Counted from the first letter of the stretch, positions 7,394 through 35,888 are shown. The stretch is DNA of 64,000 bases from Candidatus Cloacimonadales bacterium (GCA_963665815.1 OY762463.1:1632001-1696000), one strand, 5' to 3'. Notes: generated from the letters alone by a model not told the origin. A program made the numbers and translations.

Positions 7394-8809
7394 TCAATCC
7401 TTTGTAACCTGATTCTTAACATAATATTCCTCAAGTACATGCTGTCCAACTTGCTTAAGTAAAAAAATGTAAACCTTTAGAAGATTTTCAATCTGCTTTC
7501 TGAATTTTAAACATTCATAAATATTGTTTTTAAAACTTCCATCTGAGGCAAAATTGATATAACAGGAAGAACATAAATATCTTGCCCAGCAATTAGCACA
7601 TGTTTTCTCTCTGAACTCAATCCATTTATTAACAATAACTGACATTCCCTGATAATCCAGTCCATCTTCAACAGAACCTATTTTAAAATCATGATCTATC
7701 TTCTCACAAATGTAATATGATCCCTCAGATGAAACAAAAAGCTTCTGATTTCCAGGAACACATGTTTTATAGCTTATGTACTCACCATACTCACGCTTAT
7801 GAATAAAAGAAAGTGAATCCATAAAAATATGATTATCCAAAGACATATCTCCGCTTTTCAGACCTTGCACTAAGTCAAAGATTTCGGAGTTACCTTTTAC
7901 ACTATCCATGTCACTGTTAAGAAAATACTCGGTATAATACTGCTTTCTCTCATCATGTGTTGGATGCATTCTGGATATTCTCAGATTCAATTTAAGATTC
8001 TTTCGTAAATCAACAAGTTTGTTGTATTCATCTAAATTTGTAACAGTAGCCAACAATAGAATATTCTGACTATGCTTATCGATTTTACTTTTGATTAACT
8101 CAATATTTCGCTCTACTATATTGTATGTGAATGTTCCGTTAGCATGGACTCTATGTTTATCATGAATCTCTTTCAACCCATCAAAACTTATTGAAATGTT
8201 AAATGCATGCTTTACTAAATATTCAATGTTCTCTGAATCAAGTAGATATCCATTTGTTGTTATTGCATATCTAATGTTAAGATTTAAAGTGCTGCAATAC
8301 TGTACAATCTTTTCTATCAGATCCATATTAAGTAAAGGTTCTCCCCCATAAAATCCTACAAGAAGGTCTTTTCTACCGTTCTTTAAGCAAATCTCGTATA
8401 CTTTTTGAATCGCAGCAATCGCTATTTCATAGGTCATTACTTTGCTGGAATGTTTTCTCAATTTATTTTCTTCGTAAGAACCACCATAAATACAATAAGA
8501 ACATCTGAAATTGCAGTTTTCTGTAATACAAAGAGTTATCGCTTCAGGGCAAATACTCTCAGCATTTACTTCAGGTTTAAAGTACACTGCATCCTTATCA
8601 TCGATACTACTTAACAGAGTTTGAAAATCATTGTAAATTTCTCTCGCATTCCTGAATATCCCTATATATCTTTCGACATAGTCTTCCCCAGACATTGATA
8701 TCAAGCTATTCAATGTTTTATACACCACTTCATTAATTCTGACCATTTGTCCTGTTACATCAATATAAATGTAAAACTCATTCTCAAACTTGAATTTCTT
8801 AATATTCAT
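7394..8809 (-). CDS. Radical SAM/SPASM peptide maturase (cluster 1)
   Basis: TENCNFRCSYCIY, FYGGEPLL, ITTNG; SPASM cysteines CVPG..LFV..G..YICEK and CANCWARYLCSSC..C; N-terminal ~80 aa RRE-like extension. Confidence 0.9.
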   Translation of the reverse strand: MNIKKFKFENEFYIYIDVTGQMVRINEVVYKTLNSLISMSGEDYVERYIGIFRNAREIYNDFQTLLSSIDDKDAVYFKPEVNAESICPEAITLCITENCNFRCSYCIYGGSYEENKLRKHSSKVMTYEIAIAAIQKVYEICLKNGRKDLLVGFYGGEPLLNMDLIEKIVQYCSTLNLNIRYAITTNGYLLDSENIEYLVKHAFNISISFDGLKEIHDKHRVHANGTFTYNIVERNIELIKSKIDKHSQNILLLATVTNLDEYNKLVDLRKNLKLNLRISRMHPTHDERKQYYTEYFLNSDMDSVKGNSEIFDLVQGLKSGDMSLDNHIFMDSLSFIHKREYGEYISYKTCVPGNQKLFVSSEGSYYICEKIDHDFKIGSVEDGLDYQGMSVIVNKWIEFREKTCANCWARYLCSSCYINFASDGSFKNNIYECLKFRKQIENLLKVYIFLLKQVGQHVLEEYYVKNQVTKD

Positions 8810-9789
8810 TACCGGCTCAACCTGAATTTATAATAATTCTGTGAACCAGAATCTTGAATATGAACAAATTTGTCATCCACAATCATTGTATTCATAACAG
8901 TATAAATATTATCGGGAATCTTCCAGAATTGAATAAGATTAAAATTACTGTCATATTTACAGAGATACTCTCGAATCTCGAAAGCAGCTTTTATCTGCGA
9001 AGAACTTGAGTTTTTGTAATCTATTTTTGCATCAGTATTTCCCATAAACGTATGAATCACAAATATCTCATTATCAGAAGAATCGATGTTCAACACATAA
9101 GACTTCTCTGTTGGAAGATTGTCTGAAAACAAATTCTCAACTGAAATTAGCTCGTTTTTAACTTCATCATACATATAGATGTTTGATTTGTACTGAGTAA
9201 ATGCTAAATAATATTTTCCATTAGATTTCAACAATGAATTTTCTCTTTCCGTTCTTTCTATACCTATGTCATCGAATAACTTACTAAGGTCAATCCTTTG
9301 CTTTACTGAATCATTTTCTATGTTGAAGTACTTGCAGCCTGGGAGAGCATAGAATTGGGAGAAAGACACTTTGCCTTCATCCAGATATAAATCTGAAGGC
9401 AATACAGCTTTCATTGAAGAAAGAAATTCACCTTCTATGCTAAAGGTTGAGATTCTATTACTACCAATATCCGATACCAGTAAATTATCTCCAACAACAA
9501 GTATTTTCCCATTTAAAGACAATTCTCCGGGACCTTTACCTTCTTTACCAATCTTGTGAATAAATGAATAATCCTCTGAACTATATACATATACTGAGTG
9601 AGATGTATCATAGAAGAAAATCTTCCCGTCACTATATTCTACATCGAAAAATCCCATATTCATTTCACAATTTTCCTGCCATCCTAATGAATCTGCAACG
9701 GTTAAAGAACCTTCTTTCAATCGTGAGCTACATCCGAAAATTAACAGAGATAACAAAATAGATAAGACAATAATTCTTTCTTTAAACAT
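8809..9789 (-). CDS. 6-bladed beta-propeller (NHL/TolB-like) lipoprotein (cluster 1)
   Basis: Lipobox LIFGC; IGKEGKGPGEL and LLVSD..SNRISTFS..GEFL blade motifs; stop overlaps the rSAM start. Confidence 0.8.
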   Translation of the reverse strand: MFKERIIVLSILLSLLIFGCSSRLKEGSLTVADSLGWQENCEMNMGFFDVEYSDGKIFFYDTSHSVYVYSSEDYSFIHKIGKEGKGPGELSLNGKILVVGDNLLVSDIGSNRISTFSIEGEFLSSMKAVLPSDLYLDEGKVSFSQFYALPGCKYFNIENDSVKQRIDLSKLFDDIGIERTERENSLLKSNGKYYLAFTQYKSNIYMYDEVKNELISVENLFSDNLPTEKSYVLNIDSSDNEIFVIHTFMGNTDAKIDYKNSSSSQIKAAFEIREYLCKYDSNFNLIQFWKIPDNIYTVMNTMIVDDKFVHIQDSGSQNYYKFRLSR

Positions 9790-9832
9790 ATAAACTCCAA
9801 TTCATAGTGAGGGAATTATCTATTATTTATTG

Positions 9833-10003
9833 TTATTTAGAATTTGAAGATTGACCACCAAGAAGGTCGTCAATGTAAGCATTTGAAGAGTGAACACTTG
9901 ATGCATGTGCAACGTCGCATTCACAGACTGATTTTCTGCCTTTAACTTCGTTTTCATCACTTGTTGTAACAGGGCTAGAAACTACATCATAAGTACTTGT
10001 CAT
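9833..10003 (-). CDS. Putative RiPP precursor peptide, 56 aa: MTSTYDVVSSPVTTSDENEVKGRKSVCECDVAHASSVHSSNAYIDDLLGGQSSNSK
   Basis: Translated by hand (below the ORF-track cutoff). Strong SD TAAGGAG 6 nt before ATG 10003, TAA at 9835-9833, CxC motif, first gene before the propeller and rSAM. Confidence 0.8.
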   Translation of the reverse strand: MTSTYDVVSSPVTTSDENEVKGRKSVCECDVAHASSVHSSNAYIDDLLGGQSSNSK

Positions 10004-10104
10004 ACATTTCTCCTTAGATATTATAATTAGTTGTTGATAATTCCCTCATTTCCATACATAATTGCCTTTTGAGCATGTATGACAATTATCAAACACCATA
10101 AGAC

Positions 10105-10133
10105 AATAAAAAGTATTTTTTTTTACATGTCAA
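10105..10133 (-). promoter_or_regulatory. Putative sigma70 promoter of RiPP cluster 1
   Basis: TTGACA (10133-10128), 17-nt spacer, TTTATT. Confidence 0.5.
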
Positions 10134-10362
10134 TTTTATTTTCTTCAGAATATTTCTTAATGGTAAATTTAATTTTCCCCTTTCATTTTCATAGATTTTA
10201 AAAACAAGCATGATATTTTACATGAAAAATATCAGGACTGGAATTACGGTACCCTAATTAAAGAATAATTACCTCAAATGTATATTTCACACTTATAGAA
10301 GCAAATAAAACTACACTAACTCAAAAACTCGTATTACTGAAGTAGAGTAGATAAAATCCCAC

Positions 10363-10400
10363 AACAGGAGTTCAGAAATTTTTCGGACTCCTGTTTTTTT
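10363..10400. terminator. Intrinsic terminator-like hairpin, possibly bidirectional
   Basis: AACAGGAGT...ACTCCTGTT stem with a T-run on +, 10 nt beyond the stop of the minus-strand gene at 10410. Confidence 0.6.
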
Positions 10401-10409
10401 CTCGAAAAC

Positions 10410-11177
10410 TTACCCAAAATGCTTTGTAATTGCCTGAACACCTTTCTGCAGGATTTCTCTCAGTTGTAATTGTTTTTCGGAATCCACTTCTCCTGTCCAT
10501 TCATCCATAAAAGTTTTCTTAAACTCAATTGCCAGACACATTGCGTTATCGGGATAAAAATGATTAATCCAACGAGGGAAATATCCGCCGGGGAACTTCA
10601 CATTTACCCTGGCATCAATCTTATGGTCATCATAAGTCTCTTCCAGCATAGCTTGCTGGAATTCTTTCACGATAGGAAACCACTTCTCATCAAGATTGCT
10701 TGTTCCAATAATTATTTCAGGGTTCTTTTCAGGATCATCATATTCCTGCCCCGGTCCTAACCTGTGATGATTATAAGAATGTATATCCAGCACCAGAAAT
10801 TTACCGAACCTTTTCCTCATCTCATCCAGATGATACTTGATTCCTTTATAGAAATCGTCATATATCGCAAGGCTTGCCTGTACCTGTTCTTCTGAGGGTT
10901 GGACTTTTCTGACAGTCATACCCCAGGCATCCTCCGGTTTTATATAGACAGCTCTGTCTCGAGGTCTGTTTAGATCGGTTTCAAAACGACTGAACTCGGC
11001 AATAACCGTATTCTTGCATATTTCTGTAAAAAAAGCTGTAAACGGATCTTCTTCTCTGAGCTGATCAGCATCGGAAATACCCAGATTAGCTTTTGTTAAT
11101 TCGTTGAGTTTATGGCCGTTATGCACGGCAGTACATATAAAGGGTTCCTGATATGTAAATGTTGATATTGCAGACAT
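10410..11177 (-). CDS. N-formylglutamate amidohydrolase family protein
   Basis: AVHNGH, REEDPFT, SRF..DLNR, LDIHSY, FPGGY and LAIEF motifs. Confidence 0.88.
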   Translation of the reverse strand: MSAISTFTYQEPFICTAVHNGHKLNELTKANLGISDADQLREEDPFTAFFTEICKNTVIAEFSRFETDLNRPRDRAVYIKPEDAWGMTVRKVQPSEEQVQASLAIYDDFYKGIKYHLDEMRKRFGKFLVLDIHSYNHHRLGPGQEYDDPEKNPEIIIGTSNLDEKWFPIVKEFQQAMLEETYDDHKIDARVNVKFPGGYFPRWINHFYPDNAMCLAIEFKKTFMDEWTGEVDSEKQLQLREILQKGVQAITKHFG

Positions 11178-11335
11178 AGTTCATCCTTTCTTACTATTAA
11201 TGCTTTGATGGATTTTTTTTATAATATGATAAATGGCAAGATTTTTATTATTAATTCACAAAAATAAGTTTACTTGATTGTTAGACCCCACTGAACTGTT
11301 CTTCATTATGGGTTCAGATCTTCTAAAAACGGTTC

Positions 11336-11512
11336 CGCTCCTGACGGAGCAACTAACCTATTGAATTATTTGTAGACGTTACCAAAAGTTAAAATATTAT
11401 AGATATTGTACAAAGCACTATTATCTGTTTTTATCCACAAGCCTGCTCCGGAGGAGCTATATGTTTGTAGCAATCTTTAACACAAAAAGACATATTAACT
11501 CCGTAGGAGTGA
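11336..11512. repeat. REP-like palindromic cluster (CTCC-N3-5-GGAG units)
   Basis: GCTCCTGACGGAGC, GCTCCGGAGGAGC and AACTCCGTAGGAGTGA; the last 16-mer recurs exactly at 28689-28704. Confidence 0.6.
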
Positions 11513-11649
11513 CCCTTTTAATCAGCCCAATTAAACAAATATTTTTCATTATATTCAATATCAAATTTGTTTAAGAACTCTATATATTCCTGTCTAAATG
11601 TTTTCCTTTCATTTTGAGGTAGAAAAATCATTTTATTGCTTTTGTTCTA

Positions 11650-12357
11650 CTAATCAATATCCATTACTTCCACAGCAAATTGAGTATGACCATTATGGCA
11701 ATACTTGTCTATTAAGTATACTTTATCGCCCTGTTGATTTGCATATGCATAAACATAATCCGGATATTCTACCATTCCTGATTCCTGCCCTGTCTTAACC
11801 AGAAATTTACTTATAGGTTCACTTTCAATTAAATCATATGTATGATAATCATAAACATAGAAACCGGGACGAAAGTATCCTCCGAAACTTAGACTGGTAA
11901 TTAATATTTTACCGACATCCCCAGTACAGTCTAAGCTATATATACCCGGATTACTTATCATACCAACCTGTTGCATATCTGTTTCTTCTGAATCTGATAA
12001 GCTTATCACGTATCCACCAGGTAAAATAGCTTTTTCCCCGGACTCAGGAATATACATTTTGTTCAAGTCAGAGGGAAACTCACCATGATACTGCCATTCA
12101 TATAGGAATTTTGCAGGACCATTACTGATGTCATATTTATTCAGGTGTCGAGGAGAATATATTGTACTGAATGAGTAAATACTGTTTCCCGAAGGATGAA
12201 TATACAGATTTGATCTGGTTCTGAATTCAAAATCACTCAAAACAACCTGTTCACTTGCCAGGTCTATGGACATTAACAAATCATCCTCTCCATCATCTGC
12301 AGAAGCGTAAGCCCATCCATTTGAGGACATTACAAGCCTCCATGGTTTTAAGGGCAA
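11650..12357 (-). pseudogene. Probable 5'-truncated beta-propeller-like protein fragment
   Basis: 235-aa frame with a TTG start, no clear SD or signal peptide, in-frame TGA 15 codons upstream; beta-rich, propeller-like sequence. Confidence 0.4.
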
Positions 12358-12832: not shown

Positions 12833-12908
12833 TGGGGTGGCTGATGGGACTCGAACCCACAACGCCTGGAACCACAATCCAGTGCTCTACCATTGAACTA
12901 CAACCACC
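12833..12908 (-). tRNA. tRNA-His (GTG), G-1 and CCA encoded
   Basis: GGTGGTTGTAGTTCAATGGTAGAGCACTGGATTGTGGTTCCAG...GGTTCGAGTCCCATCAGCCACCCCA. Confidence 0.97.
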
Positions 12909-12917
12909 ATTGAAAAA

Positions 12918-12994
<77 letters not shown>

Positions 12995-13035
12995 GCTTAT
13001 CAAAAAAAACTGCTCGCCTTTAACGACAAGCTCTA

Positions 13036-13112
13036 TGGTAGCGGCGCAGGGACTCGAACCCCGGACACTCGGATTATGATTCCGATGCTCTAACCAACTG
13101 AGCTACGCCGCC
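13036..13112 (-). tRNA. tRNA with CAT anticodon, probably elongator Met
   Basis: GGCGGCGTAGCTCAG...TCGGAATCATAATCCGA...CGCCGCTACCA; lacks initiator signatures. Ile2 is not fully excluded. Confidence 0.9.
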
Positions 13113-13126
13113 GCGTATTTAATAAA

Positions 13127-13203
<77 letters not shown>

Positions 13204-19612: not shown

Positions 19613-21553
19613 TCACTTCAGCATTATACACTTTTTAAGGATTGATTCTCCTTTTGCAGGTGTAATCTTATAGAAGTACACTCCTGAACCTACGCCATTA
19701 CCATTATTATCATCTCCATTCCAAATAACTTCATGTGGTCCTTTTCTCATTGATTTATTGAGAAGATTCTTAACCTTTTGTCCCTTGATATTGTAGATAC
19801 TTACATTGATATTCTGTTCTTCGGTAATTGAGAAACTTATTGTCGTTCTGGGGTTAAATGGATTAGGATAGTTACAGACATTATTAACAAGTTCAAGCGT
19901 AACATCATCGTTATCTATAGCACCATCCAGGGCTATTGCATCCAGAATAACTATATCATTATCGTAGCCTATTTTGTGCCAGGCAATTCGGATATGCTCA
20001 CCGGTGTAAGAAGCCAAATCTACTGCAACGTGTTCCCAGTCAAGAGTACTGAGGTTGTCTTCTTCGGCATGCCAGACTTCAGTCCAGTTATCACCATCGT
20101 CAGTTGTAACTTTTACGGTGTAGTCTGTATGATCCATTAATCCTGAATTATAGCATGTCCAGAATTCCAGATACCCGTTCAGTCGTTCATCAATAATAAG
20201 AGTTGGAGAAATCAGCCATTCATCCTGATAATCACTTAAATCCACGTAAGGGCAAAATGCTGAGTATATATTGAAAGGATCGTATTCAGAGAATGAATAC
20301 CCCTGAATGTTACCAGGTTGCCAGGTGAAACTGTTATGAGTGTTATCCAACATCCACCATTTAGGCGGGAACCTTACCTGATCGAAATCCTGTCTGAAGT
20401 TAGTGTTCACTATTCTCGGAACAGCAATGATTCTTGAAATTTCTACCGTATCAATTGTTGAATAAAGTGTAATTCTGATCTCTTCCTGAGAATTCTGCTG
20501 AGGATTGGAAGCGTAGATAGCCCATTTACAACCACTTATTTCACCAGTGGAAATCATTTCAGGGCTCATAGTTTGAGTAGCAGTGGAATTAGCAAATCTC
20601 AAATTCTCAGACAATTCCATAACGGCATACATTGTATCAGCCGGCACATTATGATTATTCCTTGCAAACATCTGAACTGTTACAGACGCAGGAAGAATGT
20701 CTTCGTAGTTCTGTTCGAAATTATCCAACGTTGAAACAGAGAGATCAATACTATCATTTAAAGTAGTAATATTCCCGAGTCCAATATACTGCCCGAATGT
20801 ATTTTTATCATCTACATCATAAGTTTCAACATTCCATCTCATAAACAGTCCGGGAGAAGTGATAGGTACAACCTGATCCGTTTCCATATCCCAGACAACA
20901 TTAGAAAGAGTATCTGAGTTACCGAAAATCACCATACTTGGAGCAGTTGCCTCAAGACCGTTGGTGATTGTCTGAAATACTGTACCATCCGTAATGATAT
21001 CATCATTTTCGTACATCTGTATAACCTGAGGAATCACATGACCGGAAAGTTCAAGAGTAGAACTGATCTGTTGCCCGTTCCCCCAGAACGATCTCGTCCC
21101 GGTACCGGGACATTGCGGAGCATAAAAATGAGCAATTCCTATATCATGTATAATCTGGTCCTGATTATCAATCTCATATCTTAGAGTAACAAAATGCGAG
21201 TTAATGAAATCTTGAAACTCCAGAATCTGTTTGATTTCCACATCCCCAATCTCATATACAGTTTCTATCCGATCCGAATATTCGCTCACACTATAGGGAA
21301 TCAATGCAGTAACGTTTGTCAATGCATCGGAATTGGAGTAAAAATTATCATCGAGAGATACAATAAAATGTGTATTAAATGTATCAGGATATCCGGAAAT
21401 AACAGAGTTACCTGAGGCATCCCCTATGTTAAACATACCCGTTGTATCATCTACAACAACCGTGAAGTGCGAATTATTGATTGAATAATCTTCTGCTGCC
21501 AGACTACAGAGCAGACCTAATACAGCAACAAGGATAAATACCGGCTTATACAT
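19613..21553 (-). CDS. Secreted protein with cleaved-adhesin/choice-of-anchor-J-like domain and FlgD-Ig C-terminal sorting domain
   Basis: Signal peptide; QDEWLISP...VDLASYTGEHIRIAW; C-terminal NYPNPFNPRTTISF...IYNIKGQKV...W.G.D..G..V.SGVYFY. Confidence 0.8.
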   Translation of the reverse strand: MYKPVFILVAVLGLLCSLAAEDYSINNSHFTVVVDDTTGMFNIGDASGNSVISGYPDTFNTHFIVSLDDNFYSNSDALTNVTALIPYSVSEYSDRIETVYEIGDVEIKQILEFQDFINSHFVTLRYEIDNQDQIIHDIGIAHFYAPQCPGTGTRSFWGNGQQISSTLELSGHVIPQVIQMYENDDIITDGTVFQTITNGLEATAPSMVIFGNSDTLSNVVWDMETDQVVPITSPGLFMRWNVETYDVDDKNTFGQYIGLGNITTLNDSIDLSVSTLDNFEQNYEDILPASVTVQMFARNNHNVPADTMYAVMELSENLRFANSTATQTMSPEMISTGEISGCKWAIYASNPQQNSQEEIRITLYSTIDTVEISRIIAVPRIVNTNFRQDFDQVRFPPKWWMLDNTHNSFTWQPGNIQGYSFSEYDPFNIYSAFCPYVDLSDYQDEWLISPTLIIDERLNGYLEFWTCYNSGLMDHTDYTVKVTTDDGDNWTEVWHAEEDNLSTLDWEHVAVDLASYTGEHIRIAWHKIGYDNDIVILDAIALDGAIDNDDVTLELVNNVCNYPNPFNPRTTISFSITEEQNINVSIYNIKGQKVKNLLNKSMRKGPHEVIWNGDDNNGNGVGSGVYFYKITPAKGESILKKCIMLK

Positions 21554-26216: not shown

Positions 26217-26840
26217 ATGGACGAAGTAATCGGACAAGAATTAGAGCAGAGTCCTGAGGAGAAACTTCAGGCATTATTTAGTCTCAAGGCAAAACTTGAG
26301 GATGATTTTGTAGCTATTGGACAGCTTTTGTCAGAAGTAAAAAGAAAAGGGCTGTATAAAATTAAAGGTTATAACAAATTTAAGGATTTCATCGAACAGG
26401 AATATAATATAGCCGGAACATTTGCCTCAAAGCTGATTTCCATATATGATCTTTTTGTTGATGAACTTGATATAGATGAATCTTCTCTGAAAAACATCGG
26501 TGTTGATAAACTTAACATGATAAAGCCGCTTGTTAAAAACAAAACTTATTCGGAATCAGAAGAATGGCTTAACAAAGCTAATGAGCTTTCTGCTACTGAT
26601 CTGAGAGAAGATATCAAGGAAGTTCGTAAGCAAACCCAATCCAAGTCAATGAAAGAAGTTCTCATTGACCAGTTCTACGAAACAATGGTAACATTCTTCA
26701 ATTGCTCCAGAAAAGAGCTAAATTATAAACTGGCTATTTATTTTCAGGACACTGACCTTGAACAGGTTAAGAATGAAATTAAAATAAAACAGAGAAATTA
26801 TGAAAAGGAAAGCGAAGGGGAGGGTCCCGGCATTAGTTGA
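26217..26840 (+). CDS. Hypothetical protein, DUF3102/plasmid-partition (PF49)-like DNA-binding candidate
   Basis: F.AIG.LL.EVK...LY...GY..FKDFIE.EY.....A.KLI pattern. Confidence 0.5.
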   Translation: MDEVIGQELEQSPEEKLQALFSLKAKLEDDFVAIGQLLSEVKRKGLYKIKGYNKFKDFIEQEYNIAGTFASKLISIYDLFVDELDIDESSLKNIGVDKLNMIKPLVKNKTYSESEEWLNKANELSATDLREDIKEVRKQTQSKSMKEVLIDQFYETMVTFFNCSRKELNYKLAIYFQDTDLEQVKNEIKIKQRNYEKESEGEGPGIS

Positions 26841-26881
26841 TAAGAATCAGATCTAAACAAAAAACTGATAATGAGGTAAAA

Positions 26882-28441
26882 ATGCGCAAATTAAAAATAT
26901 TATGGGTAGATGATGAAATAGACTTACTGGAACCGTTTGTAATATTCCTGCAGGATAAAGGATATCACGTGCAGAAGGTGTCTAATGGAACAGATGCTGT
27001 TGCAATGGTTCTTAACGAGAAATTCGATCTGGTGCTTCTCGATGAGATGATGCCCGGAATGGACGGACTTGCTACTCTTCAGGAGATAAAACAAATTAAT
27101 CCTAATCTGGCTGTTGTTATGGTTACCAAATCCGAAGAAGAAGGATTGATGGATAAAGCAATTGCCCGTCAGATCTCTGACTATCTGATTAAACCTATTA
27201 ATCCTAATCAGATTATTATGACAGTGAAGAAAATTTTCCAGGCTGATGAAATAAGACACAATCAGATTGGTGAAGAATACTCCAGATATATTGCTCAACT
27301 GAATCAATCTCTCTTCCAGAGTCCGGACTGGAATGACTGGAAAAACATATATAATGAAATGTGTAAATGGGATGTTGTTATCGATGAAATAAACGATCAG
27401 GCCCTTGCTCACACTCATTTTCTGGAAAAACGTAATTGTAATACCGAGTTCACAAACTACATATCATCGAACTATTCTGACTGGTTGCAGAGTGATGAGA
27501 GACCGACCTTCTCATTTGACGTACTTTCCGAAACTGTAACCCCGCTTTTTGATGAAGGTAAACCGGTTTACTTCATAATTCTGGATTGCATGAGACTGGA
27601 CCAGTATCTCGCAATCGAACCTTTCCTTCAGGAATTGTTTGATGTTGACCTTGATCTGTATTACTCTATTCTCCCAACTGCAACTCCATATTCGAGAAAC
27701 TCGCTGTTCAGCGGACTTCTTCCAATTGATATTGCAAGAATGTTCCCGCAATACTGGAATGACTCCTCCGACAATGAAAACAGTCGTAACAGAAACGAAC
27801 ATCAGCTTCTTGATGCTCATATTAACGATTTGGGATACAATATCAATCCAACTTCCAAGTATATAAAAATATTCAATATGGAAGAAGCAAATTTTGTACT
27901 TAGAAAAATCAATTCCTGGTCTAAAGAAAAGCTGGTTGTTCTGGTATATAACTTCCTGGATTTACTGGCTCACCATAGATCTAAAGACAGTATACTGAAA
28001 GAAGCAATTCCGGATGAAGAAGCACTGAGAGCATTCACAAAACACTGGTTCCTGCATTCAGCATTTTACGATGCACTGAAACAAATTGCTGAACAGGATG
28101 CAACTGTTGTTATTACGACTGATCACGGTTCAATTCGTGTAAACAGAGCTACTCAGGCTATTGGTGATAAAGATACAACAATCACTGTACGTTACAAGCA
28201 GGGAAGAAATCTGACATGTAATGACAGACATGCTATCTACCTGAAAGATCCGAAAGATTTCGGATTACCATCTAACAACATTGTAGATAACTACATATTT
28301 GCCAAAGATGATTACTACTTTGTATATCCAAATTCATTCCACCAGTATCAGAGACAGTATAACGGAACATTCCAGCATGGTGGTATATCCATGGAGGAAA
28401 TGCTCCTGCCATTGGCTGTCTGCCGATCTAAAAAGAAATAA
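26882..28441 (+). CDS. porX: PorX-type response regulator (REC + PglZ alkaline-phosphatase-like domain)
   Basis: ILWVDDEIDLL, LDEMMPGMDGL, ILPTATPYSRN, TTDHG, FQHGGISMEEM; ATG 26882 follows GAGGT. Confidence 0.88.
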   Translation: MRKLKILWVDDEIDLLEPFVIFLQDKGYHVQKVSNGTDAVAMVLNEKFDLVLLDEMMPGMDGLATLQEIKQINPNLAVVMVTKSEEEGLMDKAIARQISDYLIKPINPNQIIMTVKKIFQADEIRHNQIGEEYSRYIAQLNQSLFQSPDWNDWKNIYNEMCKWDVVIDEINDQALAHTHFLEKRNCNTEFTNYISSNYSDWLQSDERPTFSFDVLSETVTPLFDEGKPVYFIILDCMRLDQYLAIEPFLQELFDVDLDLYYSILPTATPYSRNSLFSGLLPIDIARMFPQYWNDSSDNENSRNRNEHQLLDAHINDLGYNINPTSKYIKIFNMEEANFVLRKINSWSKEKLVVLVYNFLDLLAHHRSKDSILKEAIPDEEALRAFTKHWFLHSAFYDALKQIAEQDATVVITTDHGSIRVNRATQAIGDKDTTITVRYKQGRNLTCNDRHAIYLKDPKDFGLPSNNIVDNYIFAKDDYYFVYPNSFHQYQRQYNGTFQHGGISMEEMLLPLAVCRSKKK

Positions 28442-28801: not shown

Positions 28802-29659
28802 CTAATGTTTATTTTTTAATTCGTTAAATTGTTGTTGAAGCTTATAGAGTTCAGACTTTATTGCTTCAATCTCTGACTTAGTTTGTACAGTATCCTCTGT
28901 AGTGGTGTGATGCATTGTGAACTCAGGGCTGTACACGAATACACTATTACCGTTAGGATTCACATCTATACTGTATGTTTCTGTGAATTTATCATAATCC
29001 GGATGGAGAAGCATTCTCAGGAGTTTTCCTTTCCTGACTGTAAGAATTTCTATTCCATTCTTGTGGCTCTTATCCATAGCAATAGAGTAAAGATCGTTAT
29101 TGTTCTCAATCTTGTTTCCAATTGCTTCGATAATGATGTCACCGGCTTTTAATCCGTTTTTATCTGCCGGACTACCATCAATAACAGTCCTTACAAGCAA
29201 CCCGTTTTTAACTTCAAAGAATTCCATAAGTTGAGGAGTAAGTGTCTGTGTTTCTACTCCCAGTACATTATTGAAGAATACGGAAAACACATTAACAGGA
29301 GTGTCCGGAGTAACTTTCTCTGCAAGAGTCAGCTTTACTTTTCTCTTCTTCCCATTTTCAAGAATGAGAAATTCCAGCTTATCTCCCGGTTTTTTACCTT
29401 TCAAAACATTAACAATATCTTCCTGATTATGTATTTTCTTTGAATTAATCTCCAGAACCAGCATATTAACTTTCAAGCCTGCTTCTTCAGCAGGAGAATC
29501 TTCCACAATAGCTGTAAGAAGAACACCATAGTCAGAGTTCAATTTCTTCAGAACCTGTTCGTAAGGCACTTCTATGAAGATACCTATGTAAGGCTCAGGA
29601 ATTGACGCTGCCAGCGCTCCTGCTGCAAAGATTAAGATAAGAATCAGACTTCGTTTCAT
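28802..29659 (-). CDS. Exported tandem-PDZ-domain protein
   Basis: Signal peptide MKRSLILILIFAAGALAA, two PDZ repeats (IVEDSPAEEAGLK; VIDGSPADKNGLKAGD), C-terminal coiled coil, no protease domain visible. Confidence 0.8.
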   Translation of the reverse strand: MKRSLILILIFAAGALAASIPEPYIGIFIEVPYEQVLKKLNSDYGVLLTAIVEDSPAEEAGLKVNMLVLEINSKKIHNQEDIVNVLKGKKPGDKLEFLILENGKKRKVKLTLAEKVTPDTPVNVFSVFFNNVLGVETQTLTPQLMEFFEVKNGLLVRTVIDGSPADKNGLKAGDIIIEAIGNKIENNNDLYSIAMDKSHKNGIEILTVRKGKLLRMLLHPDYDKFTETYSIDVNPNGNSVFVYSPEFTMHHTTTEDTVQTKSEIEAIKSELYKLQQQFNELKNKH

Positions 29660-29670
29660 TTCTGTCTCCA

Positions 29671-30123
29671 CTAATACTGAAGTTTAACTTTAGGCTGCTG
29701 CCCTTTGTATTCACTTACGTAGAATATTGATCTGTTGTTTCTGTCTCTGACCTTCTTGATGACATAAGATTTGGATTCATCAAGATTGGAAAGATTGTTC
29801 ACAGGAACAAAATTACTCTGATCGACTATACTGTTCGGTGCACTCTGGGCAATACCTGAGTTTTCTGCAAATAACTGGTATTGTTTACCTTCAGCACGCC
29901 AGAATGCGTAGTGAGCCTTATCAGCCAAATCCGGTTTGAAAATGAATACTGCAAAAGCAAATACCATGACAACCAGAGCTGCAGTCGCAAAGGCAGGATA
30001 CCAGCCAAAGCTTTTTTTTCTGTGGAAATACTCTTTCTCAAGCTCGTATTTTAGTCTTACAGAAAACGGTCCCGGATGAACTTCCGGTGTGTTTATGTTC
30101 TCAAGATACTTTTTGATAGACAT
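29671..30123 (-). CDS. Putative membrane anti-sigma factor
   Basis: One transmembrane helix after a short N-terminal domain; overlaps the 3' end of the ECF sigma gene. Confidence 0.6.
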   Translation of the reverse strand: MSIKKYLENINTPEVHPGPFSVRLKYELEKEYFHRKKSFGWYPAFATAALVVMVFAFAVFIFKPDLADKAHYAFWRAEGKQYQLFAENSGIAQSAPNSIVDQSNFVPVNNLSNLDESKSYVIKKVRDRNNRSIFYVSEYKGQQPKVKLQY

Positions 30124-30646
30124 CTTCCAATACCTCCGCCGGGATTAATTTTTCTAATTTCTTCAGTGATCTGTGTAAATTGACTCTTAAAGTACTCTCT
30201 TTTTTTCCCAGCATTTCGGAAATTTCACTGAAGCTTTTCTTCTCGAAAAAACGTAATATTATAATATTCTGATCTTTTTCAGGCAGTTGCTTTATATACT
30301 GATGTATGAAATCGTATGAAAATCTTTCGGTCTTCTCATCAAGTACAGCCTTGTCGACATACATGTTTTCAATTTTCTTATGTCTTTTGTCTGCACGAAA
30401 ATAATTACTTATCTCACTGACTGCAATTCTGAACAGCCAGGCAGAAAACGGTATGGAGCGCCACTTGAACAGGTGTAGCTTATCCATAGCCTTAAAAAAA
30501 GTGTTTGAAACGATTTCTTCAGCATAACTCCTGTTACCAACCCGGTACATAACAAACCGGAATATATCAGGAAAGTATCTCTGATATAAAGCTTCAAAAG
30601 CCTGAATATCTTTTTTAGCCTGTAATACTAATTTTTTTTCGTCCAT
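30101..30646 (-). CDS. ECF-family RNA polymerase sigma factor
   Basis: AFEALYQRY, AEEIVS.TF, FSAWLFRIA; region 4 LP...ILRFFE.KSFSEISEMLG; ATG 30646 follows GAGGTG. Confidence 0.93.
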   Translation of the reverse strand: MDEKKLVLQAKKDIQAFEALYQRYFPDIFRFVMYRVGNRSYAEEIVSNTFFKAMDKLHLFKWRSIPFSAWLFRIAVSEISNYFRADKRHKKIENMYVDKAVLDEKTERFSYDFIHQYIKQLPEKDQNIIILRFFEKKSFSEISEMLGKKESTLRVNLHRSLKKLEKLIPAEVLEDVYQKVS

Positions 30647-30662
30647 AATCACCTCTGCAAAC

Positions 30663-30690
30663 ATAACGCCATGCTTATGTTTTAGTTTCA
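30663..30690 (-). promoter_or_regulatory. Putative ECF autoregulatory promoter
   Basis: TGAAAC-N16-CGTTAT immediately upstream of the sigma gene SD. Confidence 0.6.
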
Positions 30691-30778
30691 TGTTTTTTCA
30701 TTTTTTGCAGACTTTAAAAGTTGTCAACCCGGAAGTTATTGAAATTTAGGGAGTTCTGAGATCAATTATGATCATAAC

Positions 30779-31264
30779 CTACGCATTATTCACCTGACCA
30801 AGTTTCTTCTGTATCTTATGAGCAAAAGGAAGCTCAATAAACCTTGGTAGAGAGTTATGTTCTTTTTTGAATGTCAGAAAGATAAATTTGTGTTCCAGCA
30901 GATTCAGGTTCGCAGAAATATCATATAGCGGAGGTATAACAACAGTTACCATCTTCCCCACTCTGGCAAGCTCATCAAAAAATCGTTGAGGATCGTCCAC
31001 ATGTTCCATTGTGTGAGAGCATAAAACAGTATCGAACTGCTTATTTGCAAAGGGCAGGTTATAGATATCGTTTACCAGCACAAAATTAGGAACATCCTTA
31101 TGCTGGAAGATATCACAATTAGTTCCTCCACCGTCGGTTTTACCGCAGCAGATGTTAAGATCCCATTTTTGTTTCTTCAGGATTCGAGTTTTCTCAAGTT
31201 TGTAACTGATATAGTGGGCAATAACTACATAAGCAATAATAAAAGCGACAATAATATAAAACAT
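30779..31264 (-). CDS. Class I SAM-dependent methyltransferase-like protein with N-terminal TM helix
   Basis: LNICCG motif I variant; LPFANKQFDTVLCSHTMEHV. Confidence 0.75.
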   Translation of the reverse strand: MFYIIVAFIIAYVVIAHYISYKLEKTRILKKQKWDLNICCGKTDGGGTNCDIFQHKDVPNFVLVNDIYNLPFANKQFDTVLCSHTMEHVDDPQRFFDELARVGKMVTVVIPPLYDISANLNLLEHKFIFLTFKKEHNSLPRFIELPFAHKIQKKLGQVNNA

Positions 31265-31412
31265 AGGAACTCCTTATTGATTAACTGACTCAACAGCAAG
31301 TCAAATTATGTAATCAATAAGTCGCAGCACATTCAAACCTCATCGCAGTGCAGTATACTGACTGTTTTGTGTCAAGGGAAATAGATCAATCCAAAAAGAC
31401 ATCTACGAAAAA

Positions 31413-33143
31413 TCATCCATGATTGAGCATATTGAAGTACTCTCCCTTCACTTCCATTAATTCGCCGTGACTTCCCTCTTCAGATATTGCTCCATTACTC
31501 ATAACACATATCTTGTCACATTCTTTTATTGTAGACAACCTGTGTGCGACAATTATCACAATAATATCATCCGGTAATTTGTGCAGTGTTTCCATTATGC
31601 TTTTTTCACTGATTGGATCAATGTTTGATGTTGCTTCATCCAATAATAGAATTTTAGGATTCTTTATCAGAGCTCTTGCCAGACTTATCCTTTGTTTTTG
31701 CCCAATTGAAAGACTGTTTCCTTTTACTCCGACATGCGTATCATATTTATCCGGCAAGTTCATTATTTGAGCATGGACAGATGCCATTTTACAAACAGCT
31801 ACAACATCTTCATATCCTGCTGACATGTTCGCAAATCGTATATTATCCATAATACTGCCATCAATTAGAACTGGTTCCTGATCGACAATTCCGATATATT
31901 TTCTTAATGCTACAATTTGACTATCACTTAGCTTATCACCATTTATATAAATCTCACCTGATATTGACTTGTGTAATCCTGATAATATTTTCAATAAAGT
32001 TGTTTTTCCACATCCGGACACTCCCACAATACCTATTTTCTCTCCCTGATTAATCTCAATATTCACATTTTCCAATATAGGCTTGTCTTCTTTGTAAAAA
32101 AATTTCAATTCTCTGATTGAAAGCCTTTCAATTACAGATATGTTATAGTTGTAATCTATTACTTCACTCGGGAATGTCATTATTTCTTTAACTCGCTTCA
32201 GGGAAACCATTGCCGTTTGCAATCTTACATTTAAATCAATAAGATTCCTTGCAGGATTGAACAAATACCTGATAAAAGAATTGAATGCAATCATAGAACC
32301 AATTGTCAAACGGTCGTTAATAATCTCATATCCACCATACCCAATAATTATTAATGGAATCAGACCAATTATCATATTGGAAGAAACCTGGTAGATACTG
32401 GTTATCTTTGTAAGTTTTACAGATTCTCTATATGCTGACTTCGATGAAGAGAAAAACTGGTAAATACTGAATCGGCTTCGAAGAAACTGTTTTATCAGAC
32501 GAATAAGTGATAAACACTGCTCCAACGTAGAAACGCTTTTTGCCATTACTTCGTATGTAACCTCTGTTTGCGCTTTAATTCTCTTTCCGAAGAACACGGA
32601 TAACCATACATATGGAATTATTAGAATTACTGAGAATAATGCAAGCTTGAAATGAATTGTAAAAATCACTGATAATCCTGCAATTAAATACAGAAGATCC
32701 TTGAGTACCGCTACAAATGTTTCTGCGAAAAAAGATCTCAGACCTTCAGAATCACTATTTATCCTGGAAAGAAGATATCCTGAACTGTACTTGTTAATTG
32801 TACTCAGAGGAGCATTATTAAGCCTTTCTAAAAGTGCAACTTTAATATCCAATATGATTTTATCATTTACCCGTTTCAACATTAAAGAATGAATATAGGC
32901 TACCGCATTCTGAAATAATAGTATTGATAAAGTTATACCAACTAATACTATTAGTTCCGTTAAGTTCTTCCCGGGTAATGTAACATCAATAATTCTTCTT
33001 GTTATTAATGGTGTAGGCAAGATCAGTAGAGAAAGGATAATGATCAGACAGCAGACAAGCAGAATACTCTTCATGTATTTTTTATAGAAGTTCAGATATA
33101 AAAATCTGATAAAATTCAAGTTTTCATTCTTTGCTATTTTCAT
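31413..33143 (-). CDS. ABC exporter (TMD+NBD), no C39 peptidase domain (cluster 2)
   Basis: N-terminal TM helices, GVSGCGKTT, LSIGQKQR, LLLDEATS, VAHRLST; 576 aa. Confidence 0.92.
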   Translation of the reverse strand: MKIAKNENLNFIRFLYLNFYKKYMKSILLVCCLIIILSLLILPTPLITRRIIDVTLPGKNLTELIVLVGITLSILLFQNAVAYIHSLMLKRVNDKIILDIKVALLERLNNAPLSTINKYSSGYLLSRINSDSEGLRSFFAETFVAVLKDLLYLIAGLSVIFTIHFKLALFSVILIIPYVWLSVFFGKRIKAQTEVTYEVMAKSVSTLEQCLSLIRLIKQFLRSRFSIYQFFSSSKSAYRESVKLTKITSIYQVSSNMIIGLIPLIIIGYGGYEIINDRLTIGSMIAFNSFIRYLFNPARNLIDLNVRLQTAMVSLKRVKEIMTFPSEVIDYNYNISVIERLSIRELKFFYKEDKPILENVNIEINQGEKIGIVGVSGCGKTTLLKILSGLHKSISGEIYINGDKLSDSQIVALRKYIGIVDQEPVLIDGSIMDNIRFANMSAGYEDVVAVCKMASVHAQIMNLPDKYDTHVGVKGNSLSIGQKQRISLARALIKNPKILLLDEATSNIDPISEKSIMETLHKLPDDIIVIIVAHRLSTIKECDKICVMSNGAISEEGSHGELMEVKGEYFNMLNHG

Positions 33144-33161
33144 TGTCAGTGTATTCAGAAA

Positions 33162-34556
33162 TTACGAAGTTTCACTCTGGTTGAAGTAATTATCGATGCT
33201 TTCCTTACCTACATGGTCAAGAAGTCTGACATATAGTTGAAGCATACCTTCAATTTCACTTTTCTTTTCTGAGCATATTGAATTACTTGGAGATATATTT
33301 TCTGATCTCACGAAACTCACATAGCATAAATCGCAAAGATGAGCTCCCCAGCACTTGCTGCAGTTCTTCCCTTTGAAATAAAGCCAATCTCTTTCAATTT
33401 CATTTTTTCTGGCAGAAATTATTCCTTTATCAAGATCTCCTATGGGCATTGCGTGATCAATTTTCTCACACATATGAAAATTTCCTTCGGGAGAGACAAA
33501 CAACATTGCATTTCCCGGAGAACAGGCATGATAATTGACATCACTTCCTGAGTTTCTGAAATGTATCCTCTTTATACTTGTAATCAGATCCAGGTCTCCA
33601 CTCAAAAGCTTGCGATTTTTAAATCTATCTATAAATCCTGCTCTTCTAGCTCCGGTAATATCATCAATTCTACTTACTTCATCTTCATCAAAAGATTCAA
33701 TTTTTTCAGCATCATCGCTATCCCAAATCATAGATACATGTGAAAAAATTGGATTATCCTGTTGCAGATCAAAAAGTTCAACGAAAATTCCGGGAGTTGC
33801 CGCAGTAGCTACGAAATTAACATATTCCCTGTAATAATCAGGATACCTGTCTGAAATAGGCTTCAAGTTGTTCATTATTCTATCATAGGTCGGTTCACCA
33901 TTCAAAGCGATTCTGTATTTGTCATGAATTTCTTTTGTCCCATCTACACTTACAAATAATCTGATCTTGTTGGCTAAAAAGAAATCGATATGCTCTTCTG
34001 ACATTGCATAACCATTAGTAGTAATTGAAAATGTTATTTCGGACGGAAGCTCTTTTAAGTTTTTCACAATGTATTTCATAATGTCGAAATTTAATAGTGG
34101 TTCTCCTCCATAAAATCCGATATTCAGGTTCTCTTCCACATTGTAGTTTTCGTCAATCCATCTGATAAACTTGTCTGCTATCGTATAAGACATTTTCTTT
34201 GTTGAACTTGTTCTTGTGTAAGAATAGCTGTCCGAGTAGATACAGTACTTGCATTTTAAATTGCAGGCTTCAGTTAACCCAATAACAATTTTGAAAGGAT
34301 TTTTCTTCCTGTTTTCGTTCTTGATAGGCAAAAATGAGAATCCATTGCTTTCAGCTCTGTTTTTCATGTAATTCCGGAATTTATCGAAAACTTTCTCTAT
34401 TTCTGCATTTTCAGCATACTTATCAATATACTCATCTCTTGACATGCCCAAAAGATCATAAAATGTATTATACATGAATTCATTGATCTTAATAATGTTC
34501 GAGTTTAAAGAATCATAAAAGTAGACACCACTTACAGCTCTAAACTTTTTAAGCAC
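33162..34556 (-). CDS. Radical SAM/SPASM peptide maturase (cluster 2)
   Basis: TEACNLKCKYCIY, FYGGEPLL, ITTNG; CSPG..LFV..G.FHMCEK and CSKCWGAHLCDLC..C; RRE-like N-terminus. Confidence 0.9.
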   Translation of the reverse strand: MLKKFRAVSGVYFYDSLNSNIIKINEFMYNTFYDLLGMSRDEYIDKYAENAEIEKVFDKFRNYMKNRAESNGFSFLPIKNENRKKNPFKIVIGLTEACNLKCKYCIYSDSYSYTRTSSTKKMSYTIADKFIRWIDENYNVEENLNIGFYGGEPLLNFDIMKYIVKNLKELPSEITFSITTNGYAMSEEHIDFFLANKIRLFVSVDGTKEIHDKYRIALNGEPTYDRIMNNLKPISDRYPDYYREYVNFVATAATPGIFVELFDLQQDNPIFSHVSMIWDSDDAEKIESFDEDEVSRIDDITGARRAGFIDRFKNRKLLSGDLDLITSIKRIHFRNSGSDVNYHACSPGNAMLFVSPEGNFHMCEKIDHAMPIGDLDKGIISARKNEIERDWLYFKGKNCSKCWGAHLCDLCYVSFVRSENISPSNSICSEKKSEIEGMLQLYVRLLDHVGKESIDNYFNQSETS

Positions 34557-34573
34557 TTCATCCTCCAGTATAT

Positions 34574-35596
34574 TTATGATCCCTTCACTTCGGATTTCGT
34601 TAACTTAAATATTATTCCATTATAGTTAGATACCAGAAATACTTTTCCATTTGAGGACAGTATTTCTCCTGACAAAGTCATCATATCTCCGGGTAGCTCA
34701 CATGAAGATTTCAATTCTCCTGTGATTGAGTATTCGCAAACAAACTCTCTTATATCATAAAAATGCTTAATATCTTCTATCTTTGTCAGTGATGAATTTT
34801 TCTTCTGGGCTGGATCTACACCATATGCTCTTTCAACAACGTAAAATCTGTCGTTCATCAGCACTGCATTACTTGTTTTTGAGTATTCCGGAACAGCATC
34901 CCTGTTTACTGATGATGAGAACTGAATTTTCTCATTATTCAAATCTTTGATACACCCAACTCTATTTATTGGTACTCCTATTAGTGAATTCTCATATTTT
35001 ATAATATCTATATGTTTATTTTCTTCCTTTAAATCATTATCCGAGCAGAATTGATCCAACTTCCTCACAGTTTTAAACTCTCCATTATTATATACCGTTA
35101 ACTTATAATCAGGTGCAAAATGAGCAGTTGTAACATATATGCTGTCTTCATAATTGTATACTTTACCAATCGGGTGGAATTTCTCAGCTTTAAGAAAATC
35201 ACCTTGCTTAGAAATCCATTGTATTCTGGAATTAGCAAAATCACCTACAACTATATCACCATTTTTATCAAATGTGAATGAGTTAGGATAAAGAAATTCT
35301 CCGGGACCTCTGCCCTTACTTCCAAATTTTCTCAGAAATTTCAAACTGTTAATCTCGTAAACATAAAAAACTGCATTATCAATATCCAATACGTACAGTT
35401 CTTCACCATCAATATTGTGAATATTGTTAGCTCCAAAAGTAAAGTTTTCATCATCCTGCCATCCCAATGAATCAGCTACTACTAATACAGATTTTGAACC
35501 ACTTTCACCACTCTTGTCCTGCCTGACACAAGAAACAGAGTTCAAAATTATAAGTGTTAATACTGTGAACGTTAAACTTGCTATTCCTTTCCTCAT
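34574..35596 (-). CDS. 6-bladed beta-propeller lipoprotein (cluster 2)
   Basis: Lipobox-like NSVSC; FGSKGRGPGEFLYP; IVVGD..NSRIQW...G.FL. Confidence 0.8.
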   Translation of the reverse strand: MRKGIASLTFTVLTLIILNSVSCVRQDKSGESGSKSVLVVADSLGWQDDENFTFGANNIHNIDGEELYVLDIDNAVFYVYEINSLKFLRKFGSKGRGPGEFLYPNSFTFDKNGDIVVGDFANSRIQWISKQGDFLKAEKFHPIGKVYNYEDSIYVTTAHFAPDYKLTVYNNGEFKTVRKLDQFCSDNDLKEENKHIDIIKYENSLIGVPINRVGCIKDLNNEKIQFSSSVNRDAVPEYSKTSNAVLMNDRFYVVERAYGVDPAQKKNSSLTKIEDIKHFYDIREFVCEYSITGELKSSCELPGDMMTLSGEILSSNGKVFLVSNYNGIIFKLTKSEVKGS

Positions 35597-35669
35597 ATAT
35601 TCTCCTAAAATTAAGCTATCCGATGTTTTCCCTACTTATAAAATACAGCCCTTCAACTTAATTATCTTA

Positions 35670-35888
35670 CTATGATATACCTGAACTTGTATTGTTGCTG
35701 GATGAATTTACCAGTTTTCTGGCAGCATTCTGTTTAGCGCATCTTCTAGTTGATGCATCTCCAGCAGGATATGGTAAATTCTCACAAGTTTGACATTCCT
35801 GTGTGCTTCCACTGCCTGTGTCTTTATCAAGTGTAGAAGCTGTACTCACTATTTCCATTGAACATAAGTCAATTACATTATTATCCAT
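35670..35888 (-). CDS. Putative RiPP precursor peptide, 72 aa
   Basis: SD GAGGAG before ATG; four Cys including CQTC; Ser/Thr/Asn-rich; first gene of the propeller-rSAM-ABC operon. Confidence 0.82.
   Translation of the reverse strand: MDNNVIDLCSMEIVSTASTLDKDTGSGSTQECQTCENLPYPAGDASTRRCAKQNAARKLVNSSSNNTSSGIS

Follow-up and report, generated by a model that had tools for sequence, protein, structure and literature searches.

The two cassettes and their radical SAM enzymes

The 64,000-nucleotide stretch of a Candidatus Cloacimonadales bacterium genome analysed here (OY762463.1:1632001-1696000 in GCA_963665815.1; hereafter 'the window') carries two copies, A and B, of a cassette made up of a small open reading frame (ORF) for a peptide, a gene for a beta-propeller protein and a gene for a radical S-adenosylmethionine (rSAM) enzyme, in that order and on the minus strand in both copies (Table 1). 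A first-pass annotation of this DNA had described an identical gene order about 25 kb apart, and this holds among the ORFs of the window, with 25,885 bp between the two peptide starts, for three genes only: the repeat is confined to peptide, propeller and rSAM. In copy A the stop of the propeller gene overlaps the start of the rSAM gene by 1 nt, and a 423-bp gap downstream of rSAM A leads to a YggS-type pyridoxal phosphate enzyme; in copy B the gene for an ATP-binding cassette (ABC) exporter begins 18 nt downstream of rSAM B. The genes lying between the copies are housekeeping genes (tRNAs, RNase G, L21, phosphoenolpyruvate carboxykinase, Tgt, PanB, RseP and the type IX secretion system (T9SS) regulator PorX), so the cassettes are not parts of one island.

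Table 1. Genes of the two cassettes, with positions counted from the first letter of the window
Feature	Position	Strand	Product
Peptide A (small ORF)	9833-10003	-	56 aa
Propeller A	8809-9789	-	326 aa
rSAM A	7394-8809	-	471 aa
Peptide B (small ORF)	35670-35888	-	72 aa
Propeller B	34574-35596	-	340 aa
rSAM B	33162-34556	-	464 aa
ABC exporter, fused permease and ATPase	31413-33143	-	576 aa; PF00664 + PF00005

By sequence comparison, rSAM A and rSAM B are true paralogs. The two are 31% identical (BLASTP, E 2e-80), and when 235 proteins retrieved by a word-based search of a 5.8-billion-cluster database were rescored with phmmer they came out as reciprocal best matches (254 and 251 bits), the best foreign protein, P0002, scoring 229 and 223 bits. 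This word-indexed retrieval is leaky: the paralog went unlisted in either rSAM search though phmmer ranks it above all listed foreign matches, and absences in such lists are therefore weak evidence. In phylogenies both enzymes fall, together with P0002, P0007 and P0010, into a single five-member clade (SH-aLRT 98 in a quick tree of 45 rows; 95/96 in a careful tree of 30 rows), and not into unrelated clades, an outcome that the first-pass annotation had named as one that would undo its proposal of paralogous cassettes. Within the clade, the free careful tree leaves A outside a group of B with P0002, P0007 and P0010, a placement that is weakly supported (89/81) and involves long branches, and sisterhood of A and B is not rejected (p-AU, the P-value of the approximately unbiased test, 0.64), the constrained tree being 3.76 log-likelihood units better.

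The five rSAM motifs singled out earlier are likewise present in both enzymes exactly as written, and it is their strict rather than their loose forms that set the pair apart. The loose forms are family-wide, occurring in 61 to 163 of 233 homologs, and the consensus of a 67-sequence alignment already holds VTExCN..C.YC, IGFYGGEPLLN, ITTNG and CxxCWxxxLCxxC. The strict forms are rare (0, 1, 8 and 11 of the 233), with the exception of GFYGGEPLLN (65/233), and it is C.PGN..LFVS.EG....CEKIDH...IG that is found in none of these homologs. The commonness of the loose motifs is what could be said for the view that the cassettes are two unrelated rSAM/SPASM maturases that lie near propeller genes by chance; we regard this as highly improbable, however, given the reciprocal best matches, the clade with its 95-98% support, the rarity of the strict motifs, the identical order and strand of the three genes, and propellers that themselves match at E 4e-17 with a VADSLGWQ motif in common.

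Both enzymes belong to the radical SAM superfamily (PF04055, 65.0 and 64.5 bits against a cut-off of 29.5). In rSAM A the CX3CX2C motif is formed by C99, C103 and C106, and these residues are invariant in the 67-sequence alignment, as are seven SPASM cysteines (C350, C368, C404, C407, C413, C416 and C433), which together with an end-to-end profile alignment with CteB place the enzyme among SPASM proteins. The domain layout of rSAM A consists of a domain resembling the recognition element (RRE) of peptides that are ribosomally synthesised and then modified after translation (RiPPs) at about residues 1-67, a radical SAM core and a C-terminal SPASM domain, and rSAM B is built similarly. The best solved relative is CteB (PDB 5wgg), both by sequence profile (E 7.7e-70, over CteB residues 5-447) and by fold, with the AlphaFold 2 (AF2) model of rSAM A (mean predicted local distance difference test, pLDDT, 87.4) matching CteB at E 1.4e-21 and a query-normalized TM-score (TMq) of 0.64, followed by TigE and the anaerobic sulfatase-maturating enzyme anSME. 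Among NCBIfam models the cysteine-rich peptide maturase CcpM (TIGR04068) scores highest for both enzymes and is matched end to end (profile positions 2-459 of 462), but at 226.7 bits for A and 223.8 bits for B against a cut-off of 500. Scores below the cut-off are also seen for GG_samocin_CFB (TIGR04148; A 156 and B 160 bits, cut-off 300), PapB (NF047865; 142 and 140 bits, cut-off 340), QhpD (TIGR03906; 129 and 113 bits, cut-off 453, E 1.8e-37 and 1.2e-32) and the maturase of the SCIFF peptides, whose name stands for 'six Cys in forty-five' (TIGR03974; 127 and 113 bits, cut-off 425).

The small peptides and their predicted docking

Peptide A contains a leader-like segment, YDVVSSPVT (residues 5-13), the sequence Cys27-Glu-Cys29-Asp and a Ser-rich tail, and peptide B contains EIVSTAS (residues 12-18) and four cysteines (Cys9, Cys32, Cys35 and Cys50). 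Each ORF is preceded by a Shine-Dalgarno sequence, AAGGAG 7-8 nt before the ATG in A and GAGGAG about 7 nt before it in B, and both peptides are present as called proteins in public sources. Neither has a match in NCBIfam or Pfam. The ESM Atlas yielded no usable match, and a peptide profile search across 5.8 billion protein clusters returned four candidates, of which the two window peptides alone passed E <= 10; since that profile search needs shared 5-residue words and small ORFs are often uncalled in metagenomes, this does not amount to a demonstration of absence. For want of homologs, conservation offers no argument for the peptide ORFs being genes.

The first-pass annotation had gone on to propose that the two peptides define a precursor family with shared motifs, and here the comparison of A with B gives no support. 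BLASTP finds no alignment between them at E <= 100, the Smith-Waterman score of 26 is no better than the average for shuffled sequences (26.2, sd 5.2), 2434 of 5000 of which do as well or better, a semi-global alignment score as good as the observed one is reached by 3308 of 5000 shuffles, and phmmer --max finds no peptide cross-match among 1111 six-frame segments from the window and four further propeller loci. Thus neither above-chance similarity nor any further member has been found. The individual motifs fare unevenly: the central VCECD (A) and CQTCEN (B) are present as quoted, the leader motif [D/E][V/I]VS[S/T]..T..D matches peptide A but is one residue too long for the EIVSTASTLD of peptide B, and the tail NA...L[L/V]...SSN can be fitted to both peptides only with gaps of unequal length. 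A family uniting A and B is therefore unsupported and not established, though also not refuted, as no homologous locus with an rSAM gene was readable; the lesson is that motifs aligned by eye in short Ser/Thr-rich peptides are no evidence of a family.

For copy A, the relation of peptide to enzyme was modelled as a complex between rSAM A (with the 67-row alignment) and peptide A, alongside three controls. The complex scored 0.63 (runs at 0.66, 0.63 and 0.61) versus 0.00 for the best of the three controls; in calibration 58 of 80 solved complexes attained this level of score, as did 2 of 110 mismatched pairs, figures that are approximate here as our own alignment was supplied. The runs have at least 41% of contacts in common, with a partner pLDDT of at least 44. 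In the predicted complex peptide A is contacted at residues 1, 3-13 and 27, and rSAM A at residues 13, 19-26, 28-29, 57-58, 61-62, 65, 337-341, 349-350, 416 and 447-463. Specifically, peptide residues 3-13 are placed on rSAM A residues 19-26 and 57-65, and Cys27 near the SPASM auxiliary-cluster cysteines. The groove so occupied, beta3/alpha3, belongs to the N-terminal domain (residues 3-67; AF2, pLDDT >88), which is modelled with strands at 3-8, 11-16 and 21-25 and helices at 27-31, 33-38, 41-48 and 55-67, so that residues 21-25 are its strand three and residues 55-67 its final helix. This placement mirrors the published arrangement of CteB with its substrate CteA, in which, according to the available part of PMC8326336, the leader strand lies in the RRE between alpha3 and beta3, with a Cys of the substrate at the open iron of a SPASM cluster. 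By fold and leader placement rSAM A is thus predicted to be an RRE-containing RiPP maturase. The earlier suggestion that the VVS/IVS segment binds the RRE finds support, at the level of a structural model, for the VVS of copy A, the copy covered by the prediction, while copy B falls outside it.

These results also bear on whether the small ORFs are substrates, or genes, at all. The rSAM enzymes might instead modify a protein, either the propeller or another exported protein, in the manner of anSME or QhpD; such a reading would fit with peptides that lack homologs and family matches, with the tight linkage of each rSAM gene to a propeller gene, with the presence of the anSME and QhpD models among the significant matches and of anSME among the top structural matches, and with a SPASM enzyme installing thioether cross-links on proteins that is reported in the available part of PMC13692751. 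We nonetheless consider it quite unlikely. An N-terminal RRE-like domain, which anSME lacks, is confidently modelled in rSAM A, the predicted complex puts the peptide leader into the groove of that domain while all controls score 0.00, and both ORFs have a strong Shine-Dalgarno sequence at the expected spot. The propellers, moreover, carry putative export signals and would leave the cytoplasm where the rSAM works, and their sole conserved cysteine besides that of the lipobox (in EYLC) is an Arg in the relative P0248.

Beta-propellers and the origin of the twin cassettes

As judged from their sequences and modelled folds, both propeller proteins are NHL/DUF5128-type six-bladed beta-propellers and putative lipoproteins. 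Both belong to PF17170 (DUF5128; 30.6 bits for A and 35.3 for B, cut-off 22.9), and propeller B also scores above the cut-offs for PF15869 (TolB_like) and, in B only, PF01436 NHL (23.0 against 20). The two are 25% identical and have in common, after the signal-like N-terminus, the motif VADSLGWQ[ED] (VADSLGWQE in A, VADSLGWQD in B). The N-terminus is hydrophobic, and its putative lipoprotein-type signal ends at Cys20 in A and Cys23 in B, a cysteine that is invariant in 13 of 13 aligned family members; on inspection, the IFGC of propeller A fits the usual lipobox and the SVSC of propeller B is atypical. The AF2 model of propeller B (pLDDT 84.7) finds its best Foldseek matches in the six-bladed NHL domains of the eukaryotic proteins Mei-P26 and TRIM71, followed by Bacteroides DUF4221/BF0058 structures.

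Two enzymatic assignments for the propellers were considered and rejected. The first was an enzyme like the NHL-type peptidyl-alpha-hydroxyglycine alpha-amidating lyase PAL (PDB 3fvz), in which metal-binding histidines are conserved in the centre of the propeller. No invariant or near-invariant His is found among the 13 aligned propeller family members, so that a PAL-like metal site is unlikely; the match to PAL is to a single repeat (profile positions 90-133), and neither peptide ends in Gly. The second, any other enzyme, was rejected on the same lack of a conserved His and on fold matches that are to binding-type NHL domains.

Relatives of the propellers are informative about how the cassettes arose. 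An exhaustive propeller profile search was dominated by giant NHL-repeat proteins, with P0240, P0248, P0294 and P0346 as full-length relatives, and propeller A is 54% identical to P0240. Among species-representative genomes the motif [VI][VAI]DSLGW[QK][DE] gave 25 pattern matches and four confirmed loci, all in two metagenome-assembled genomes (MAGs) of Cloacimonadota. In the phylogeny propeller A pairs with P0240 (support 100/99) and is grouped with the MAG propellers L003_7980, L003_9973 and L003_10950 (89/93), and propeller B joins P0248 and L003_8981 (100/100). Sisterhood of propellers A and B is rejected (p-AU about 1e-48), and the A and B lineages taken as one clade, a group named after the tree had been seen, have a p-AU of 0.036. 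The split between the propellers therefore predates the divergence of the organisms that hold these relatives. Hence the idea of a duplicated and diversified cassette stands for the enzymes, which are paralogous, but not in the form of a simple, recent duplication, as the propellers, for all their 25% identity, are not sisters and each has closer kin elsewhere.

The four confirmed loci, which show DSLGW-type propellers to be amplified in the two MAGs, are varied in structure. In one MAG four DSLGW-type propeller genes stand in tandem (L003, 7980-11897) with no rSAM gene nearby. In another contig three such genes are interleaved with AcrB-like and outer-membrane efflux genes (L004, 1590-6149), again with no rSAM gene nearby. 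At a third locus (L002, 7201-8954) the propeller gene overlaps the stop of a methyltransferase gene, and no rSAM gene is nearby. At the remaining one, a 493-aa protein encoded upstream of the propeller (L001, 6280-7761) was considered as a degenerate rSAM enzyme and rejected (hhalign probability 0.3%).

Two histories could account for relatives of this kind: either they have lost enzyme and peptide, or an enzyme-peptide pair was attached to resident propeller genes. The second would mean that the cassettes arose by assembly and not by duplication of a unit, a diverging rSAM-peptide pair having been attached to two resident propeller paralogs, members of an older lipoprotein family expanded in the Cloacimonadota, or acquired twice from an unsampled donor. 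This history is possible, though it seems to us clearly less probable than a common origin of the whole unit. It accords with the strong and separate groupings of propellers A and B with foreign relatives, with the rejection of their sisterhood and the post hoc 0.036 for their joint clade, with other MAGs' propellers that lie in tandem arrays or beside unrelated genes without an rSAM gene, and with the absence of an rSAM ortholog above 33% identity among the matches listed. Base composition points the same way: the rSAM, propeller and ABC genes have G+C contents of 0.316-0.344, the other 49 genes averaging 0.375 (sd 0.026), and with ranks of 3, 4, 5, 5 and 7 of 56 are among the lowest, while the peptide ORFs are average (0.374 for A and 0.379 for B). 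However, assembly would call for two independent insertions, each splitting a peptide-enzyme pair in the same way around a resident propeller gene, which is unlikely; the 1-nt overlap between the genes for propeller A and rSAM A suggests an operon that is old and integrated; and with a leaky word-based retrieval an ortholog could have been missed.

We therefore favour an old duplication of the entire unit, because the propeller lies between peptide and enzyme in both copies and because of the overlap in copy A. On this preferred reading, to which we assign a probability of roughly 0.55, each cassette would be an rSAM-dependent, RiPP-like peptide-modification module, and the twins would stem from one ancestral three-gene unit, with enzymes that are now 31% and propellers that are 25% identical and peptides that have diverged beyond detection.

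Several observations weigh against this reading. The peptides have neither detectable mutual similarity nor homologs, and no leader peptidase was identified. Both enzymes score far below all NCBIfam equivalog cut-offs, so that their chemistry is not assignable from these models, and the Pfam SPASM model PF13186 matches neither at E <= 0.01. Among the matches listed, no foreign rSAM enzyme is more than 33% identical to A or B. An rSAM gene is present in the flanks of none of the four Cloacimonadota propeller loci, L003_8981 having none within 8 kb, so the pairing of the propeller with such enzymes is not obligatory. Though P0240 lies on a contig of 446 kb and P0248 on one of 163 kb, no rSAM ortholog was retrieved for their organisms. 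Lastly, the complex evidence comes from copy A alone, the fold of peptide A itself is modelled with uncertainty (pLDDT 44-46), and the high score of the complex may come from the predictor having learned the solved structure of CteB with CteA.

A working model, its relatives and its genomic setting

If the cassettes do work as RiPP-like modules, the following sequence of events may be proposed. The small ORF would be translated from its strong ribosome-binding site, and the N-terminal segment of the peptide (YDVVSSPVT in A) would dock as an additional strand into the beta3/alpha3 groove that the RRE-like domain provides, bringing the cysteine motif (Cys27 in A) near the SPASM auxiliary-cluster cysteines of a CcpM/CteB-like enzyme. 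The chemistry would most likely be the formation of a thioether cross-link, or a few of them, joining the CxC/CxxC cysteines to nearby acceptors such as Glu, Asp or Thr, a proposal whose sole basis is the nature of the nearest characterised relatives of the enzymes (CteB, CcpM-type enzymes, PapB and QhpD). By analogy with these, the product may carry a thioether of the ranthipeptide or sactipeptide type, in which the Cys sulfur is bonded to a carbon of an acceptor residue. The product could then be exported by the ABC transporter of copy B, and the putative propeller lipoprotein, whose gene lies between those for peptide and enzyme and is translationally coupled to the enzyme gene in copy A, might act outside the cytoplasm by binding the product, whether as receptor, as scaffold or in self-protection.

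CteB, the SCIFF/ranthipeptide maturase of Clostridium thermocellum (PDB 5wgg, 5why), resembles rSAM A in its N-terminal RRE, its radical SAM barrel and its seven-cysteine SPASM domain, but aligned identity is only about 21%. The substrates differ as well, with two (A) and four (B) cysteines in the peptides here and long Ser-rich tails. The predicted beta3/alpha3 leader site and the substrate Cys near the SPASM ligands are further likenesses, while a propeller lipoprotein is not described with CteB in the available part of PMC8326336. The CcpM family provides the top-scoring model, but with less than half of the 500-bit cut-off neither enzyme is a member, and peptides A and B, unlike those of CcpM, are not Cys-rich.

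A more distant parallel is found in quinohemoprotein amine dehydrogenase, where a small subunit, for which there is an ABC-type exporter, joins a beta-propeller subunit outside the cytoplasm. The cassettes here similarly comprise a small C-E/C-D peptide and a propeller, to which copy B adds an ABC exporter. In that system the rSAM/SPASM enzyme QhpD cross-links Cys to Asp/Glu in the small subunit, as given in the available part of PMC8326336. In contrast to it, neither peptide contains Trp, so a cofactor of the cysteine tryptophylquinone (CTQ) type is not possible; no heme subunit, dedicated protease or flavoprotein lies near the cassettes; and the propeller is of the six-bladed NHL type and a putative lipoprotein. 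Following this analogy, the peptide might not be a free antibiotic but a ligand or small subunit dedicated to the neighbouring NHL propeller lipoprotein on the cell envelope, duplicated into two private pairs and perhaps feeding the genes for an extracytoplasmic function (ECF) sigma factor, an anti-sigma-like protein and a PDZ protein downstream of copy B. The logic of such a peptide-propeller pair would be comparable to that of the cross-linked small subunit and propeller subunit of the dehydrogenase, but we hold this more specific version to be unlikely.

The propellers themselves are closest in kind to Bacteroidota propellers of the DUF5128, DUF4221 and TolB_like families, two of which are matched in fold (BF0058, PDB 4raa, E 6e-11; BVU_1028, PDB 3s9j, E 2e-10). 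These, like the probably exported propellers here, are exported proteins of the Fibrobacterota-Chlorobiota-Bacteroidota (FCB) group of bacteria, with no known function. They differ in that the similarity in fold is modest (TM-scores of 0.55-0.58), with eukaryotic NHL domains matching best, and in that the propellers here have their own [VI][VAI]DSLGW[QK][DE] motif, whose confirmed loci in species-representative genomes are all from Cloacimonadota.

The ABC exporter adjoining copy B likely exports the peptide, judging by gene position only. It is not a peptidase-containing ABC transporter (PCAT), as an N-terminal C39 peptidase domain is missing: matches to peptidase-containing exporter models begin at profile positions 120-176 (138 for TIGR01193 and 155 for TIGR03796), and Pfam finds ABC_membrane, ABC_tran, weak ATPase-related matches and nothing else. 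Downstream of the exporter a string of minus-strand genes occupies 28802-31264. It includes a 161-aa ORF whose only match is to a portion of a methyltransferase domain, a gene for an ECF sigma factor (30101-30691) overlapped by a 150-aa ORF without a family match, and a protein with two PDZ domains (28802-29671), and ends in a hairpin at 28773-28753. This string may be a regulatory module tied to copy B. Promoter and terminator scans gave the same counts as shuffles (21 versus 20.7 and 31 versus 33.2, respectively), the one notable site being that terminator-like hairpin after the PDZ gene.

Other features of the window lie outside the cassettes. The 800-bp spacer between peptide B and gcvPA holds a 104-bp unit repeated 2.2 times with 97% matches (36406-36637, plus strand). 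Each copy of the unit has a GGTGAA...TTCACC hairpin, a pattern that has three matches in the window and none in shuffles and belongs to no Rfam family; an extra copy of the hairpin core lies at 36175-36202. An Rfam scan of the whole window found four tRNAs and nothing else, the tRNA genes being clustered at 12836-13203 (minus strand). A third radical SAM/SPASM protein (2273-3301, minus strand, 342 aa) matches the Pfam SPASM model and adjoins BatA/VWA-type genes; it is nearest to the model for a tungsten-cofactor oxidoreductase maturase (122 bits, cut-off 380), and its layout is unrelated to that of rSAM A and B. The T9SS is represented by a cargo-type protein with choice-of-anchor J and T9SS sorting domains (19613-21553, minus strand) and by the response regulator PorX (26837-28441, plus strand, 684 bits); with the use of Shine-Dalgarno sequences and the relatives of the propellers, these two suggest a Cloacimonadota-like host from the FCB group.

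Taken as a whole, the locus is an rSAM-RiPP-like module of known type with an unusual propeller partner. In the literature searched, which included searches for DUF5128 by name, no rSAM-RiPP module with a DUF5128/NHL lipoprotein was found described, and the terms propeller, lipoprotein and NHL have no occurrences in the available parts of the RiPP/rSAM surveys PMC10352776 and PMC10288494, whose supplements might list such neighbourhoods. RRE-bearing rSAM/SPASM maturases are one of the principal sources of new peptide natural products, and the two enzymes described here, which score below all curated cut-offs, come from the Cloacimonadota, about whose natural-product biology little is known. 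If the pair functions in the proposed way, it would offer a natural test of the co-divergence of leader and RRE after duplication, and a first entry point to the function of DUF5128/NHL lipoproteins. Should the peptide indeed be dedicated to its propeller, the cassettes would put an rSAM/SPASM maturase to a use not described before, in a lineage without a cultured model.

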